Sequence record: OZ346151.1
Strand: one strand, 5' to 3'
DNA from: a phage
Length of the DNA stretch: 64,000 bases
Below the pieces are notes generated by a model. It searched no databases. It saw only the letters and a program-made list of their open reading frames with translations, and was not told the origin of the DNA. Shown here piece after piece: positions 9,791-62,897 of the stretch. Every line of letters begins with the position of its first letter. Position 1 is the first letter of the stretch. The translations under genes were made by a program, and so were the position numbers.

Positions 9791-10036
9791 ATGAACAAAG
9801 GGTGGACATTTGTAGACGGCGTTAAAAACATGCCTCTAGGAAAGTATATTGTAGCCATGGCAGATGAGAATGGCAAGGTTGATTTCGGAGTTTGCGAGGT
9901 TGTTCTTGCAGGATCTGGTGACTATGCTCACAAAACTGGGATAATTAACGGTCATTTCTACTTTGATTACAACCCTGTTGTGGCGTATATGGCTATGCCA
10001 GAGTTCGAGCTCCCAAAGGAAGGTGCAGATGTTTAA
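9791..10036 (+). CDS. hypothetical protein
   Basis: 81 aa, RBS AGGAG upstream. Confidence 0.45.
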   Translation: MNKGWTFVDGVKNMPLGKYIVAMADENGKVDFGVCEVVLAGSGDYAHKTGIINGHFYFDYNPVVAYMAMPEFELPKEGADV

Positions 10037-10226
10037 GCTTAAATCTGCATGGAACATCGCTGTGGGGGACGAGATCCGTATCCCAGGTGGAAAGACCATT
10101 ATGAAAATATCTCGTATCGAGTACGAAGGTGATCGTGTATTTCATATCTTTGCAGAAGATGGTCGAGAGATTTATATACAGGTAGGATCTCACATCTATA
10201 TTCGTAAGAAAGGGGAGGACAAATGA
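10029..10226 (+). CDS. hypothetical protein
   Basis: ORF track 9963..10226; ATG 10029 preceded by AAGGAAGG. Confidence 0.4.
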   Translation: MFKLKSAWNIAVGDEIRIPGGKTIMKISRIEYEGDRVFHIFAEDGREIYIQVGSHIYIRKKGEDK

Positions 10227-10552
10227 CAGAGATCATCATTTCAACTGCAGGGTATGTATTCCTGACAATCATTGCACTGGCTATTTTGGTGACAGTGTAT
10301 GGGTTTGTTATCCTTCCTATCCTTGAGACATTTAGTTTGTGTCGGTGTTGGAGAAAAGCTTACGGTCCACAACCATGGAAGGACTGGCCCCACCTGGTGC
10401 GCTTAGCGTTCTCTTATGCTTACGATCACTCCAGTAGTGCATGCATAACCGGATACCACGCCCACAACTGGAGCTGGGAAGGGTTGAGGAAATGGAATGT
10501 TACAAAGACCATACCTCTGCGCATGTACAAACCTAAAAACAAAGACAACTGA
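10223..10552 (+). CDS. hypothetical membrane protein
   Basis: 109 aa, N-terminal hydrophobic helix. Confidence 0.45.
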   Translation: MTEIIISTAGYVFLTIIALAILVTVYGFVILPILETFSLCRCWRKAYGPQPWKDWPHLVRLAFSYAYDHSSSACITGYHAHNWSWEGLRKWNVTKTIPLRMYKPKNKDN

Positions 10553-10589
10553 TACTTGAAAATTCCTGGCATATCAAGTATAAGGGGGA

Positions 10590-11050
10590 TTTCTAAAATG
10601 GATTTCCTCCTTTTGATATTTCACCGGGCTGGATATTTTAAAATTCTTAGAAAATCAGAAAATGGATCGAAAACTAAAATGGATTTTTCAGAGTAGGCGC
10701 GACAAGCTGAATAACTCATCCTATCGTTTGCACCATATTCCAGGCCACCATTATAGATTTCCCACACATGCTAACCTCTCCCTACTAGAACTTCCTCCAC
10801 TTACCCTTGACCTTCTATGGTAACAATCTAACCGCTATCTTGAAGTTGCGGTGCAGCTTTCCAGGTACTCGATCTACTTTTCATTTCAGGGCTTGGATTT
10901 TCTGAAAATTTTTCTCGATAAATTTCTCAGTACTCGATCTGTTTTTCGTTTTCTGAATCGGATTTTCTGGAAATCGTTCCGGCTCTCAACCTGAAATTTT
11001 TGGGGACGAAATCGATTTTTCGTTTTCAGAAATGGATTTTTAAAATTTCT
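10590..11050. repeat. AT-rich region with degenerate direct/inverted repeats built on GGATTTT / AAATGGATTT / GTACTCGATCT
   Basis: GTACTCGATCT at about 10866 and 10931; GGATTTTCTG at about 10893 and 10960; AAATGGATTT at about 10597, 10681, 11031. No credible ORF. Confidence 0.5.
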
Positions 11051-11157
11051 ATATGGGAATATTTTAGTGGATACTGTTTTATAGGAAATTGTTACGGAGG
11101 GTAATTAGCATGCTAATTAAATTTATTAAATGCGAGGAGTTCTCATTTAGAATTTTG

Positions 11158-11370
11158 AATGATAATCATTCTCGTTTGCAGAATAACGGGCAGGCCCGGT
11201 GATTGTCTCCCGGCCCCTGTTGCCCCGGCTTGTTATTATAGTATCACACAGGACAAAGAAAGCAAGGACTTTTTGCATAAATTTTTAAATGATAATGATA
11301 ACCGTTCTCATTTTATGCAGCGCCCATCCCCGGTGGTTGTCTCCCCCGTCACCGGTGCCTGCCGTCCTTT
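11158..11370 (+). repeat. Two imperfect direct repeats (about 75 bp) with core CCGGTG(A/G)TTGTCTCCC, GC-rich
   Basis: Copy A about 11158-11240, copy B about 11283-11370; followed by repeated ACCTGGCGGGG motifs. Confidence 0.5.
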
Positions 11371-11736
11371 CGATATGTATATTGTGCCACCTGGCGGGGC
11401 CGCTGTCAACACTTTTCAAAAAATTTTTCTAACCTGGTGCGCTAACCGTTGCAACCTGGCGGGGCCAGCCTGGCAGGACCTAACTGACCAGGTAGGGGAG
11501 AATGAAGGCTTGTAAACCTGGTGGGCCTATGCTACAGGATAGGTAACAATTGAAGAGGAGGTACAAAAATGATATGATCCCCCTGGAAAATGTAGCTATT
11601 AATGACTCTGAGGCTATCGCCCTGGTTGAAAAGGCTATGGCGGGAGCGTTGGAACATAAAGAAGAGTACGAAAATGGTGGTTAACCTGGCGGGGGCGGCA
11701 GGTGGATTCTATCATAAAAATAATTTAAAATAGTAG

Positions 11737-11764
11737 TTGACAACAAGGTTAATCATGGTATTAT
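11737..11764 (+). promoter_or_regulatory. sigma70 promoter (TTGACA-N16-TATTAT)
   Basis: TTGACA 11737-11742, -10 11759-11764. Confidence 0.6.
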
Positions 11765-11814
11765 TACCCTACAAGGTGAACAACACCGCACTAACCAGTA
11801 AAGAGGATAAATTT

Positions 11815-12012
11815 ATGAACGCATACGGGATCAAAGTACGTCGCAACACTCGCCAGGTGGTCACCAATCAAGTGATTTGCCGGGTGGATGTAACCATCAA
11901 CAACGGGCAAGGCCTTTATAAATTTCGTCGCGGTCATAGCTATACCCTGCAACAGCTTAATCGTTGCGCCCTGACAAAAGGTCAGATCAACCACTGGTTT
12001 AATAAAAAATAA
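11815..12012 (+). CDS. hypothetical protein
   Basis: ORF track 11737..12012 starts at TTG inside the promoter; ATG 11815 preceded by AGAGGA. Confidence 0.45.
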   Translation: MNAYGIKVRRNTRQVVTNQVICRVDVTINNGQGLYKFRRGHSYTLQQLNRCALTKGQINHWFNKK

Positions 12013-12015
12013 GTA

Positions 12016-12044
12016 TTGACATACAGTCAGACACCAAATACACT
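12016..12044 (+). promoter_or_regulatory. sigma70 promoter (TTGACA-N17-TACACT)
   Basis: TTGACA 12016-12021, -10 12039-12044. Confidence 0.55.
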
Positions 12045-12076
12045 AAAAGCACAAAAGACACTAAGAGGATAAAATC

Positions 12077-12262
12077 ATGAAAACCACTACCTTTAATTTT
12101 GATAATGCAGACTTTTCTTTTTCTGATGTCAAGAACTGCCGCCGTGATCGTGGATTTTACAAGGCTTATAATCTGGTGGGCCTGGACGATGACAATAATT
12201 TGCACGAAGTAGCTGAGATCCAGCTTGACAGATTGGACGGGAAAGTACTAAAAACTTATTGA
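12077..12262 (+). CDS. hypothetical protein
   Basis: 61 aa, RBS AGAGGA upstream. Confidence 0.45.
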   Translation: MKTTTFNFDNADFSFSDVKNCRRDRGFYKAYNLVGLDDDNNLHEVAEIQLDRLDGKVLKTY

Positions 12263-17501: not shown

Positions 17502-17505
17502 ACCT

Positions 17506-17530
17506 GGCGGGGGCCTTTTCGGCCCCCGCC
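17506..17530 (+). terminator. strong GC hairpin (terminator-like; no U-tract)
   Basis: GGCGGGGGCC-TTTTC-GGCCCCCGCC, perfect 10-bp stem right after stop codon. Confidence 0.45.
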
Positions 17531-17564
17531 TGAAATTATGAAAAATAAAAAGAGGCAAACTATC

Positions 17565-18391: not shown

Positions 18392-19524
18392 AAGCACATA
18401 GCCGCCAGATCTCAGAATTTACGTACGCTCACCAGTCTATAGCCTGCTAAGTATTTATTCCAACCATAGAATAACGGAATAGTCAATACCTGCATAAAAT
18501 AATTATTCGTGTAAACTGCATAACATAAATCGGCTAGGATGTCAACATTTTTCGTAAACAGCTCGAAATTATAACGGTGAGTTATAATAAACAGAGAAAT
18601 CTTTAGTCGTCTAATGTTTACTGTACATTACTATACTGACTGGAATCATTAGATGACTAAGAGAAAGATAAGAAATCATTAACAATGCAATTGTTTTATT
18701 CGTAACAATAAGGCAACTATGCAAACGGATGGCATGGCGCGACGGAGTCGCGACATAATATAAAAGCAGTAACCATCACCCCCGTGATAGTTTGTCTGCA
18801 AACTATTAATCAGATCATAGTTGCCTTGTATTTAGTTAATCATGACATAACAAGCAAGGCAACTATAGATCTGCTAATAGTTGCCCTGCTTTTATATTAT
18901 GTCATAGATTATTAGCCTGTTAATTGTTAGTCAGTCAAATCAACAACGTTATCATTTCAGTCTTTATTGTTGTTGATCGTTATTGTTATCATGCAAACGA
19001 ATGGCATGGCTTATCATTTTTGAGTAAACAATCTATACGTGAACAGTGAGGCATGCAATAGTAAGGGCGGGAATAATGAGAGTGTAAACTGTCAAGGGTA
19101 ATGTCAATTATATCAATCGTGTCAGTTATGTCACCATTATGTCAGCAGAGTTTTTCTCCTCTTTGTCAAGTGCTGCATGCCCACACAAATAGTAAGAAAT
19201 ATAATTGTTATGTGCGTAAACAGTAACTCATGTTATCAATCCCTGTATGTATCGCCAGTGGTGCGCATAATGGGTATTATGTTAAATTGCCCGTAATGAT
19301 AATGGTTCTCACAATGATAGGTATTCTCATTCCCCCACACAAAATAGATTGCAAATGTTGTGCCACTATGTGAACGGCCTCACCTATTAATTTGCCTCAC
19401 TGCCTCGATATTTGAGAATTATCATAAGAATGAGAAGTATTCCCATTTCGTCCGCCTGGCAGCACTCCAGTCGCTACGGCTCAGAACAGGGCAGAATTGT
19501 GTCCATTCAGATATTTCTGTCTGG

Positions 19525-20732
19525 CTCTTCAGGTCTGTGTGGGAAAAGTCCACCTCTCTGGCGGGGCATGGGGTCATGACGGGAAAATTGCAGGTCAATT
19601 AAAAAATTTACGTGGTGTATGAAGCGCTCTTCAGGTAAGGCATGTATTATGGGATGAAACCCTCTTCAGGCAATGATATTTGTGGGTGTGATATTTGCTG
19701 GAAAGCCAGATATGACGGGACTCCCGGCGGGGCAGGGGTAGTACAGACAGGGGAAATATGGAGGATGTGGTTAGGTGAATTGATCAGACAGGTAGAGTAT
19801 GGAATATGTTACAGGTATGTTAAATAGGGCGGCTGAATATCTGTAGGATTTGTGTGTAAAATCAAAGACTTAAGTGGTGTTGTGGTATTTTCTATAAATA
19901 ATTCAAGTTTAATAGGTAATATTTGTCTCTATTCGCTTTGTGTGGTAAACAGATTCAGATGAGATTGGTTTACAAGCGTATACATAATATACAAATTAAA
20001 GATACAAGAAACCCCCCTCCCCCTTCGGCTACCATTCACCTTTTCCTCTGACTGGTACTTAAACACTTATTCAGACTCTTCAGGTTATCACCCATATATC
20101 ATATGGCAGTGACTGGTGTCCTCCGGCCCCTCTTTCGTCACCCGTCCGCTTCGCCATGCTAATGCCATAGCCAATGGTTCGGTTGTTCACCCTGTTCACT
20201 CAGGTGTATCTCCATACCCCTTCAAAACGAAGAGAACAGAAAACCCGAATTACTCGGTAAAAGAAAAGAGAAGAACTTAATTTTATCAGGATAGGCAAGA
20301 ATGTCAAGGCATGACTGCTCACTAAACAAGCAAACAGTCATGTGTGGGAGGTAAGTGATTGTGGTGGTAGGAAATTTAGTTGAAAGATGTGTTATAGGTG
20401 CTTCCAGCACTTTAGCCGGGCAGCTAATTGTGTGTCAGTCCAGCGGTTCATCCTCTACTTCACTGAAATCAATGTTCATGGTCTCTTCCCAACCATCGAT
20501 CTCAGCACAAGAGTGGAGTTCTTTAGGGTTTACTCCTAAAGCCTCAGCAACAGAGTCTATATTTAACACCTCTGGCAGGTATGATTCATCAAATTCAAGG
20601 TAAATCAGGCCACGAGTGTTGTCAGCTCCACCAAATATTTCTATCTTCATAAAATCTCCTCTGGAAATGAGAGTGTGAACAGGGTTTTATACGTCCCAAT
20701 GCACAGGAATTATGCACGTTTTCCTCTTCAGG
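19525..20732 (+). repeat. Five dispersed copies of the 9-mer CTCTTCAGG in a noncoding region
   Basis: Copies at 19525-19533, 19627-19635, 19662-19670, 20076-20084, 20724-20732, all same strand. Confidence 0.5.
20435..20650 (-). CDS. hypothetical protein
   Basis: 71 aa; last ORF of leftward array. Confidence 0.4.
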   Translation of the reverse strand: MKIEIFGGADNTRGLIYLEFDESYLPEVLNIDSVAEALGVNPKELHSCAEIDGWEETMNIDFSEVEDEPLD

Positions 20733-62809: not shown

Positions 62810-62820
62810 AATAGTAAATA

Positions 62821-62897
62821 CTCCGCGTAGCTCAGCTTGGTAGAGCGCCTGATTTGGGATCAGGAGGTCGAGTGTTCGAATCACTCCGTGGAGACCA
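62821..62897 (+). tRNA. tRNA-Pro (anticodon TGG), CCA encoded
   Basis: Acceptor CTCCGCG/CGTGGAG (C1:G72 as in Pro tRNAs), anticodon loop TTTGGGA, T-loop TTCGAAT. Confidence 0.85.

Follow-up and report, generated by a model that had tools for sequence, protein, structure and literature searches.

Some phages are known to draw on nutrient-sensing regulators of their hosts: lytic cyanophages carry PhoB and NtcA sites, and Fur controls stx1. In temperate coliphages, Fur control of sitABCD has been described as well (PMC6969025). The region considered here, positions 10553-11740 of a 64,000-nucleotide stretch of phage DNA (sequence record OZ346151.1; the whole stretch is referred to as the window), resembles these cases in that it carries predicted operator sites of such a host factor, Fur. 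While the described systems control identifiable auxiliary or toxin genes, the sites lie here in a gene-free region beside iterons of a virulent enterobacterial myovirus. Judged by its sequence, the region is a conserved cis-acting control locus and not a gene. In the literature searched, no report of Fur sites in virulent enterobacterial phages was found.

The window derives from an rV5-like Vequintavirus, a myovirus of E. coli. A megablast search with positions 10400-11900 matched 122 phage records, 112 of which, Vequintavirus myoviruses of E. coli, span most of the query at 80-99% identity, with EdH4 as the top match (98.7%). The region sits within a long array of small rightward genes, each of which is preceded by its own sigma-70 promoter. 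The elements carrying the argument are the following:

10855-11040, no strand: three iterons (10855-10901, 10920-10966 and 10994-11040) of 47-57 nt, 70-74% identical to each other
11041-11154, no strand: AT-rich spacer (GC ~0.33) between the iterons and Fur operator 1
11155-11179, no strand: predicted Fur operator 1, overlapping 19-mers at 11155 (15/19) and 11161 (14/19)
11155-11184, plus strand: candidate Fur-repressible rightward promoter, read from sequence, TTGAAT-18-CAGAAT, predicted start ~11191
11181-11231, minus strand: block B copy 1, the putative leader of the leftward transcript, with the core GGAGACAATCACCGG on the minus strand, which is CCGGTGATTGTCTCC at 11197-11211 on the plus strand
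11265-11238, minus strand: predicted leftward promoter P(-)1, TTGCTT (11265-11260), 16-nt spacer, TGa-TACTAT (11246-11238), predicted start ~11231
11290-11310, no strand: predicted Fur operator 2, 19-mer at 11291 (16/19), the best in 64 kb
11318-11374, minus strand: block B copy 2, with the core CGGTGGTTGTCTCC at 11331-11344 on the plus strand
11409-11381, minus strand: predicted leftward promoter P(-)2, TTGACA-17-CACAAT with TG extension, predicted start ~11374

Candidate Fur boxes were scored against the E. coli consensus, either as the 19-bp sequence GATAATGATAATCATTATC or as the 7-1-7 palindrome TGATAATnATTATCA (maximum score 14); the listed hosts of the phages concerned are mostly Enterobacterales, which share this consensus. 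The matches at 11291 and 11155 are the top two within the 64 kb, where four sites reach at least 15/19 compared with 0.5 in shuffled sequences. Operator 1 contains the 7-1-7 core TGATAATCATTCTCG (11160-11174) and operator 2 comprises two such cores 6 nt apart (11290-11304 and 11296-11310). In both operators companion hits occur at a 6-nt offset (11155/11161 and 11290/11296), and overlapping sites offset by 3 or 6 bp have been described for Fur clusters (Chen 2007, PMC2189734). A short-query blastn search of 5,426 E. coli genomes found positions 11160-11178 with 19/19 identities in 3,923 records. The matching sequence is the Fur site of the E. coli mntH promoter, and its position between nupC and mntH agrees with the 19.9-bit Fur cluster reported by Chen et al. 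to be centred at -56, that is 56 nt upstream of mntH (Chen et al. 2007, PMC2189734).

Relatives in which boxes are present (Seunavirus, Mydovirus, Certrevirus, Henunavirus, Phapecoctavirus, Justusliebigvirus and metagenomes) have between one and five 7-1-7 palindromes, which score 11-14 of 14 and are more numerous and often better than those of the window. The box centres fall, in several genera, at -31, -60 and -89 relative to a conserved GGTG anchor, with a spacing of 29 bp; the centre of the proximal box lies 31 nt from this anchor in most lineages which keep that box. The proximal box of phage 4MG, TGATAATCATTATCA, is perfect (14/14) and shares 19/19 positions with a likewise perfect box, ATGATAATCATTATCATTT, which is found 231 bp upstream of the terminase small-subunit gene in a lambdoid prophage of E. 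coli FORC_069 (L061, 1501-1519). From its position we infer that this prophage box is the nohA-type site at -233 which was gel-shifted with Fur (Chen et al. 2007, PMC2189734); it would thus provide a precedent for Fur sites beside phage packaging genes. Taken together, we consider it likely that the palindromes of the window and its relatives are operators for host Fur.

With E. coli Fur operators of the mntH and nohA type the phage boxes share near-consensus palindromes up to 19/19 identities, overlapping hits at a distance of 6 nt, the arrangement in multi-site arrays and, at operator 1, the overlap with a candidate sigma-70-like promoter. They differ in that they belong to a virulent genome, have no adjacent protein gene to regulate and are mostly situated downstream of the best-supported promoter, and in that a 29-bp phasing of whole boxes has not been described for host operators; the phage boxes are, furthermore, predicted from sequence. 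We would like to mention that three unrelated IMG/VR contigs (L014, L015 and L017) contain a Fur box followed by TTTAGTGAAT and facing a gene on the opposite strand, and Fur boxes may be more widespread among uncultivated phages.

Each Fur box is faced by a minus-strand sigma-70 promoter about 75 nt away. Across 32 distinct sequences from all lineages, a TTGnnn -35 hexamer, a spacer of 16-18 nt and a -10 hexamer with A2 and T6, which is often TG-extended, are found at a fixed position, in most lineages 35-38 nt from a conserved CACC. The mean score of these leftward promoters amounts to 8.5, compared with 6.7 for shuffled sequences and 7.4 for the opposite strand. While the hexamers are fixed, the spacers are unrelated between lineages, which is the trace expected of a functional promoter. 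At operator 1 the box overlaps the candidate rightward promoter TTGAAT-18-CAGAAT in the classical geometry of Fur repression; the leftward promoters, instead, have their boxes downstream. An earlier model-made reading of the letters and their open reading frames (ORFs), in the following called the sequence-only reading, mentions neither Fur boxes nor leftward promoters. The protein-binding control region which it offered as one possibility finds good support, at the level of sequence, in the canonical Fur operators, the position-conserved sigma-70 promoters and their location in the most conserved segment.

Between leftward promoter and Fur box extend about 55 nt, block B, whose core on the minus strand reads GGAGACAA(T/A)CACCGG (the core element may also be written GGAGACAATCACC) and which is conserved over two subfamilies and metagenomic lineages. 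The whole unit consisting of promoter, block B and Fur box is duplicated in Vequintavirus. In the window this imperfect tandem duplication of ~118 nt (11145-11262 and 11281-11400; 61% identity with gaps, scoring 7.6 standard deviations above shuffles) corresponds to the two imperfect direct repeats already recognised by the sequence-only reading. In an alignment of the window with nine Vequintavirus relatives, the mean pairwise identity reaches 97.0% at 11155-11414 (23 of 262 columns variable), compared with 93% for the iteron segment (10860-11045), 92% for 11046-11154, 77% for 10700-10859, 75% for 11415-11573 and 91-94% for the flanking gene ends. Hence, the strongest constraint rests on the part which the sequence-only reading had stressed least. 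Roughly the same part, ~11110-11266, is the only one of the region with DNA-level matches in other genera (sensitive blastn, 71-88% identity); these are the genera named above, which represent two subfamilies, and most of the matches fall into unannotated stretches. This conservation in related phages excludes the possibility of unconserved filler. A common layout recurs in the two subfamilies: three iterons of ~70 bp are combined with an AT-rich spacer, with as many as five Fur boxes, for which a distance of 29 bp is frequent, with the conserved ~55-nt block and with a leftward sigma-70 promoter.

The iterons of the window are spaced by 65 and 74 nt. Taken with the wider limits 10855-10914, 10920-10979 and 10994-11040, each is composed of a (G)TACTCGATCT-type box, TTTTCRTTTTC, a GGATTTTC box and an A/T-tract; GTACTCGATCT is present twice (10866 and 10931). 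The sequence-only reading had described an AT-rich first half with repeats of the GGATTTT type. The repeats stand in the form of the three iterons, but GGATTTT by itself shows no enrichment (16 copies found in the window versus 14.3 expected) and is relevant only as an iteron component. Three-copy arrays of ~60-80-nt repeats with a spacing of 52-76 nt occupy the matching position in BIS47, Hena1, POP15 and SD2, two long copies 138 nt apart were detected in anhysbys, and in most lineages examined a three-copy array precedes the Fur boxes. The iterons of Vequintavirinae contain CTCGATCG...CGTATTT or GGATTTT boxes together with AAAAAATTTTT tracts, those of Stephanstirmvirinae read TATTTAAAGTTTTT...AAAATGAAAG, and a syntenic metagenomic lineage (L041) has shorter TAACTATWAATC repeats. 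Such lineage-specific sequences represent the pattern of binding arrays which co-evolve with a specific protein. The adjoining AT-rich spacer harbours a perfect 18-bp palindrome, TAATTAGCATGCTAATTA (11102-11119), which is conserved in Vequintavirus and to which a similar sequence occurs in L041, as well as a Fur half-site-like GTTCTCATTT (11139-11148).

On the minus strand the order of promoter, leader, Fur box(es), AT-rich DNA and iterons, which is duplicated in the window and recurrent among relatives, leads us to read the locus as a leftward transcription unit operated by Fur, gated by iron and aimed at the iterons as a possible origin or enhancer. We put this reading forward tentatively and give it somewhat less than an even chance. 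Host RNA polymerase would start at the tandem promoters P(-)2 and P(-)1 and transcribe the G-rich ~55-nt leader of block B towards the AT-rich spacer and the iterons, with a site for host Fur directly after each leader (11290-11310 and 11155-11179). Under iron-replete conditions Fe2+-loaded Fur would sit on the operators, so that leftward transcription would be blocked, the opposed rightward promoter repressed, or both; when iron is scarce, Fur would leave and transcription would enter the iteron region. In Vequintavirinae, the Fur-repressible rightward promoter may add interference. The iterons would bind a protein, probably a phage-encoded one, and as a possible origin or enhancer would receive an input which depends on the iron status of the host. 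Sequence and comparison show the matches to the Fur box, the conserved promoters, the iteron arrays, the lack of coding capacity and that of a consensus fold in block B; occupancy by Fur, the sign of the response to iron and the function of the iterons are inferred.

Several observations weigh against this reading. The Fur boxes are placed ~55 nt downstream of the start site, which is not the classical geometry of a repressor, and in E. coli few Fur clusters lie between promoter and start codon, where weak repression is to be expected (Chen 2007, PMC2189734). No terminator or other end is definable for the leftward transcript. The rightward promoter has a good -35 hexamer in Vequintavirinae only, this element being poor or absent in Stephanstirmvirinae, L041, a second metagenomic lineage (L050) and copy 2 of the window; since the promoter is missing in copy 2, L041 and L050 despite the conserved block downstream, GAATRRCRSGCA is not reliably a -10 element. 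L041 retains block B, the leftward promoter and the upstream repeats and lacks any Fur box, and L050 possesses merely the distal box at the second-row position of -60, from which it follows that Fur is an accessory input and does not form the core of the element. In principle, the protein bound by the palindromes could be one of the phage instead of Fur. Finally, the literature searched yielded no data on transcripts, Fur binding, iron response or small RNAs for these phages; the map of the rV5 genome paper shows a "non-coding" box whose location is not stated.

For block B we looked for a function at the RNA or peptide level. The sequence-only reading had also considered structured non-coding RNA genes, a suggestion which the data do not support: RNAalifold applied to 30 sequences gives no consensus structure (-1.7 kcal/mol for the minus and 0.0 kcal/mol for the plus strand), single folds are inconsistent between homologues and have energies at the level of shuffled sequences, and a scan of the window region and four related loci against Rfam 15, RyhB included, produced nothing better than E = 1.3. 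A structured RNA was therefore rejected for this block. By visual inspection, the wobble pairs of a small stem around the core favour opposite strands in different lineages. Small peptides or leaderless ORFs on either strand were equally discarded upon inspection by eye since the frames differ by lineage, are interrupted by 1-nt indels or lack start codons. Sites within the window complementary to the core with up to three mismatches, as they might be targeted in trans, show no excess (7 found versus 4.25 expected). With no fold, no conserved ORF and no excess of complementary sites, block B is conserved as primary sequence. A site for a protein, a signal for transcription, for instance a promoter-proximal pause element as suggested by the -10-like GACAAT within the core, or a single-stranded RNA seed could underlie this conservation. 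The leader RNA contains clusters of G, such as GGGGCAACAGGGGCCGGGAGAC.

The elements which flank this core of the region are given below:

10549-10584, no strand: AU-rich inverted repeat CTGATACTTGA / TCAAGTATAAG, 91% complementary, spanning the stop codon of the upstream gene
10590-10699, no strand: left AT-rich part with AAAATGGAT(T/C) motif copies at 10593-10605 and 10674-10686, 94% identity among Vequintavirus
10700-10859, no strand: variable C-rich spacer, 77% identity, 91 of 162 columns variable, GC skew ~-0.35
11389-11693, plus strand: five members (11389, 11432, 11454, 11516 and 11684) of the GC-rich ACCTGGYG(G/C)G family
11574-11684, plus strand: small ORF of 36 amino acids in the window, with ribosome-binding site GAGGAGG at 11555-11561, kept in relatives

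At the left edge of the non-coding region, the inverted repeat folds with -8.9 kcal/mol (z -1.6) on the plus strand and not significantly on the minus strand; it is a possible weak bidirectional terminator. A further copy of AAAATGGAT(T/C) is found at 11027-11039. The C-rich spacer constitutes the least conserved ungapped part and is devoid of codon periodicity.

Between 10553 and 11573 no credible coding sequence is found, each of the six frames containing 14-21 stop codons. The ORF at 11159-11515, for which the sequence-only reading had noted an implausible composition and no ribosome-binding site, was rejected as a gene: its frame is not kept, as five of the nine Vequintavirus relatives have deletions of varying length, most of which are not multiples of three, and 80 of 173 columns are gapped in the alignment of 11415-11573. 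The "hypothetical proteins" which GenBank annotators have placed at the locus disagree between records. The claim that the region is gene-free from 10560 to 11740 accordingly holds as far as position 11573 and fails for the ORF at 11574-11684, which is conserved, has a ribosome-binding site and matches phrog_21957 (E 9e-21); a homologue is also present in L041. In relatives this ORF begins four codons earlier. A 7-nt deletion private to the window (AAAGGTA; 11565-11580), where all nine aligned relatives read ATGAAAGGTAAT..., breaks the frame of the gene from its first ATG.

The second half of the region is indeed GC-rich as had been stated (0.565 at 11300-11499 versus ~0.43 in the surroundings). 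For ACCTGGYGSG the window contains seven copies where 0.28 are expected, and five of the seven fall between 11389 and 11693. Of the at least five ACCTGG(C/T)GGGG copies claimed earlier, five local family members are thus present, but merely three of them correspond to exact ACCTGGCGGGG, those at 11432 and 11516 being variants. The family resides in the indel-prone zone 11415-11573, and end points of deletions in relatives fall between the copies. Hairpin formation by the motif, as proposed by the sequence-only reading, finds little support: the structure at 11682, which is deleted or altered in relatives, has marginal stability (-12.8 kcal/mol, z -1.9), and for the other local copies folding does not exceed that of shuffled sequences. 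A sixth copy further downstream (17502-17531), ACCTGGCGGGGGCC-TTTTC-GGCCCCCGCC, folds into a strong GC hairpin of 10 bp (-25.9 kcal/mol, z -4.7) directly after a stop codon and without a T-run, its 5' arm belonging to the ACCTGGYGGGG family. We rejected ACCTGGYGGGG as a promoter class since the copies of the window lack a -10 hexamer, take both orientations relative to promoters and vary in number among close relatives. A host origin of the GC-rich half was likewise dismissed as a blastn search with 11100-11740 against the 5,426 E. coli genomes returned nothing; a pattern scan of 185,579 bacterial genomes gave a single match in an unrelated Rheinheimera sequence, which looks like chance. Of all parts of the region, the two motifs emphasised by the sequence-only reading, GGATTTT and ACCTGGYGGGG, show the lowest conservation and carry the least information.

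To the right of block B, other genera possess elements which are absent from the window, where the duplicated unit takes their place: a 10-bp direct repeat, TCTTTACAWW, two more leftward promoters and a conserved GC-rich block of ~85 nt, termed block D. The latter contains a GU-rich hairpin followed by a U-rich tract (UUUCCUCUUCU), which forms on the plus strand only, and includes a single compensatory change from G-C to A-U (8 and 6 sequences); its consensus energies are weak (-12.8 and -14.1). The homologous non-coding region of Seunavirus and Mydovirus extends as far as a small gene read leftward on the minus strand (L004, 1794-1976; L006, 1817-2008; L011, 1826-2011), which is not present in the window and whose product in PVP-SE1 is a DUF7170 protein (Pfam, E 6e-26). 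In the promoter of this gene, the spacer is occupied by the motif CC(T/C)GGCGGGG in both PVP-SE1 and GAP31, resulting in TTGCAT-CCTGGCGGGG...-TACTAT. Raoultella phage Ro1 carries its homologous region as two separate pieces over ~1.4 kb (19136-20572); the match overlies an annotated HNH endonuclease gene, which suggests the insertion of a homing endonuclease. About 17 GenBank records of the MG0656xx series, named "Campylobacter phage" with C. jejuni as host, are 83-95% identical to E. coli Vequintavirus or Phapecoctavirus in these regions; probably these host labels are wrong or the phages are contaminants.

A second non-coding region of ~1.25 kb (18392-19640) is situated at the maximum of the cumulative GC skew (~20 kb), where plus- and minus-strand genes converge. 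It contains four Fur-like boxes (19292-19335 and 19412-19450), which are conserved among Vequintavirus, and many GenBank records start within its counterpart. The only published terminus of a relative is the 514-bp direct terminal repeat (DTR) of Mydovirus KPP-1 at 116,316-116,829, from which the KPP-1 homologue of the region studied here (124,880-125,574) is ~8 kb away. By analogy with this position, 18392-19640 is probably the genome terminus or packaging region. If the ends of Vequintavirus genomes are fixed, this correspondence would place the region 10553-11740 ~7-8 kb inside the genome and not at its terminus; PhageTerm called three Vequintavirus genomes circularly permuted. A terminus or DTR at 10553-11740 was considered and rejected because the KPP-1 repeat maps ~8 kb away and Enterobacter phage EC152, whose record (L035) is linearised exactly at the first iteron, is devoid of terminal redundancy. 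Two contigs from metagenomes apparently start some 240-300 bp to the left of block B. Elsewhere in the window, a cluster of seven tRNA genes is found at 62085-62897, one odd call of 99 nt with a four-base anticodon among them (62554-62652, "tRNA-???").

A secondary origin was the remaining possibility offered by the sequence-only reading. If the locus were a replication origin, the iterons would bind a phage initiator, the AT-rich spacer together with the AT-rich Fur boxes would unwind, and the leftward G-rich transcript would activate or prime replication via an R-loop, with Fur as a modulator or as an incidental presence. This explanation overlaps with the Fur-gated leftward unit, from which it differs mainly in naming the output. 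The regular spacing of three ~70-bp iterons with A/T tracts ahead of the Fur boxes, their lineage-specific sequences, the adjoining spacer of low GC content, the conserved promoters which fire into the iterons via a leader with G clusters, and a conservation equal to or above that of the flanking gene ends in non-coding DNA all speak in its favour. T4 oriF and oriG, ColE1 RNA II/RNA I and the iteron origins of lambda and P1 are similar in combining iterons, an AT-rich segment, a promoter reading into it, a G-rich leader and an opposed promoter for a possible antisense RNA, but Fur boxes are part of no described origin. Furthermore, no initiator-like gene is adjacent, the neighbours being PHROGs of unknown function, NADAR or HNH; neither DnaA boxes (TTWTNCACA) nor IHF cores are present in 10000-12200; the cumulative GC skew shows no inflection at 11 kb, although this is a weak test as skew follows transcription; and an enrichment of GATC in the repeats, seen in Seunavirus, Mydovirus and Certrevirus, does not extend to the window, Hena1 or Stephanstirmvirinae. 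By analogy with the known origins such a function is conceivable, yet on balance we regard it as unlikely. Slightly more doubtful still are tandem Fur-repressed genes for small RNAs (sRNAs) of the PrrF1/PrrF2 or RyhB type, in which a rightward promoter over each Fur box would produce a short RNA whose conserved 5' CCGGUGAUUGUCUCC would be the seed, with the leftward promoter providing an antisense partner. Like PrrF1/PrrF2 of Pseudomonas and the RyhB paralogues, the units are tandemly duplicated and each begins with a Fur box followed by a short conserved non-coding sequence. In most lineages, and at a constant distance, the proximal box overlaps the -35 hexamer and the spacer of TTGAAT-18-CAGAAT, the strongest conservation of primary sequence follows just downstream of the putative start, and the hairpin and U-rich tract of block D, ~200 nt downstream in other genera, could be a terminator, the compensatory pair within it being in keeping with an RNA. 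Unlike the known sRNAs, however, the units of the window are followed by no terminator, lack homology and any conserved structure on either strand, and have their best-supported promoter on the opposite strand; the Rfam scan and the count of complementary sites are negative as well, and block B stays conserved where the rightward promoter is poor or absent.

The remaining explanations are considerably weaker. As a Fur decoy, the boxes of the multiplying genome (two to three here and ~4 at 19292-19450) would titrate Fur and derepress iron uptake and iron-sparing functions of the host, favouring iron-dependent phage enzymes, e.g. ribonucleotide reductase. Arrays of up to five high-scoring boxes per locus and a second conserved cluster in another non-coding region of the same genome are compatible with such a role, and the Fur titration assay makes use of the known titration of Fur by multicopy boxes (cited in Chen 2007, PMC2189734). 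A decoy, however, does not need the fixed register of boxes to a conserved promoter and leader, and some lineages have one box or none; we regard it as very unlikely. We judge as more improbable still that the region is a cis-acting site for DNA entry or processing in analogy to the injection stop signal (iss) of T5, that is, a repeat-rich block at a fixed distance from the genome end with arrays of host-protein sites. The T5 iss is an untranslated stretch of 1.2-1.7 kb rich in repeats and palindromes, lies ~9 kb from the end, is better conserved than neighbouring ORFs and has ordered DnaA boxes; the region described here corresponds to it in its ~1.2 kb of repeat-rich non-coding DNA, its conservation, its ordered arrays of host-protein sites and its location ~7-8 kb from the positional counterpart of the KPP-1 repeat, all genes in between reading towards the putative terminus. 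It differs in having Fur instead of DnaA sites and no sequence similarity to iss. Moreover, the terminus is deduced from a relative of another genus, the PhageTerm result means that fixed ends are not established for Vequintavirus, two-step injection is unreported for these phages, and the T5 model is itself hypothetical. Least credible of all are unrecognised genes, such as the ORF at 11159-11515, or functionless filler. The former can be based on the assorted hypothetical proteins annotated in GenBank records, which are mutually inconsistent and conflict with the frame-breaking indels of close relatives and the dense stops in all frames; the latter is excluded by the conservation of 11155-11414 and by the DNA-level matches across subfamilies.

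Returning to the leftward unit gated by Fur, a more far-reaching version may be formulated, which we consider rather unlikely. In rV5-like and phAPEC8-like virulent phages, Fur on the phased array would act as an iron checkpoint by gating leftward transcription into an origin made up of iterons and AT-rich DNA, and would thereby license replication or an early-transcription switch according to iron status. The boxes would, together with the cluster at 19292-19450, additionally titrate Fur and open the host iron regulon. The rV5-like (Vequintavirinae) and phAPEC8-like (Stephanstirmvirinae) phages are virulent phages of broad host range, and their isolation is widespread for use against E. coli, Klebsiella, Salmonella and Cronobacter in therapy and biocontrol; the sites at which they act, namely gut, urine and blood, are strongly limiting in iron, with Fur being off. 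The analysis offers a first handle on a non-coding locus which is conserved at least as well as the flanking gene ends across two subfamilies and which annotations fill inconsistently. If the region is indeed operated by Fur, the early programme of these phages, and possibly their replication, would differ between iron-rich broth and iron-poor sites of infection, and the use of host nutrient regulators by lytic phages would widen from PhoB and NtcA in cyanophages to the iron regulon of enterobacteria.

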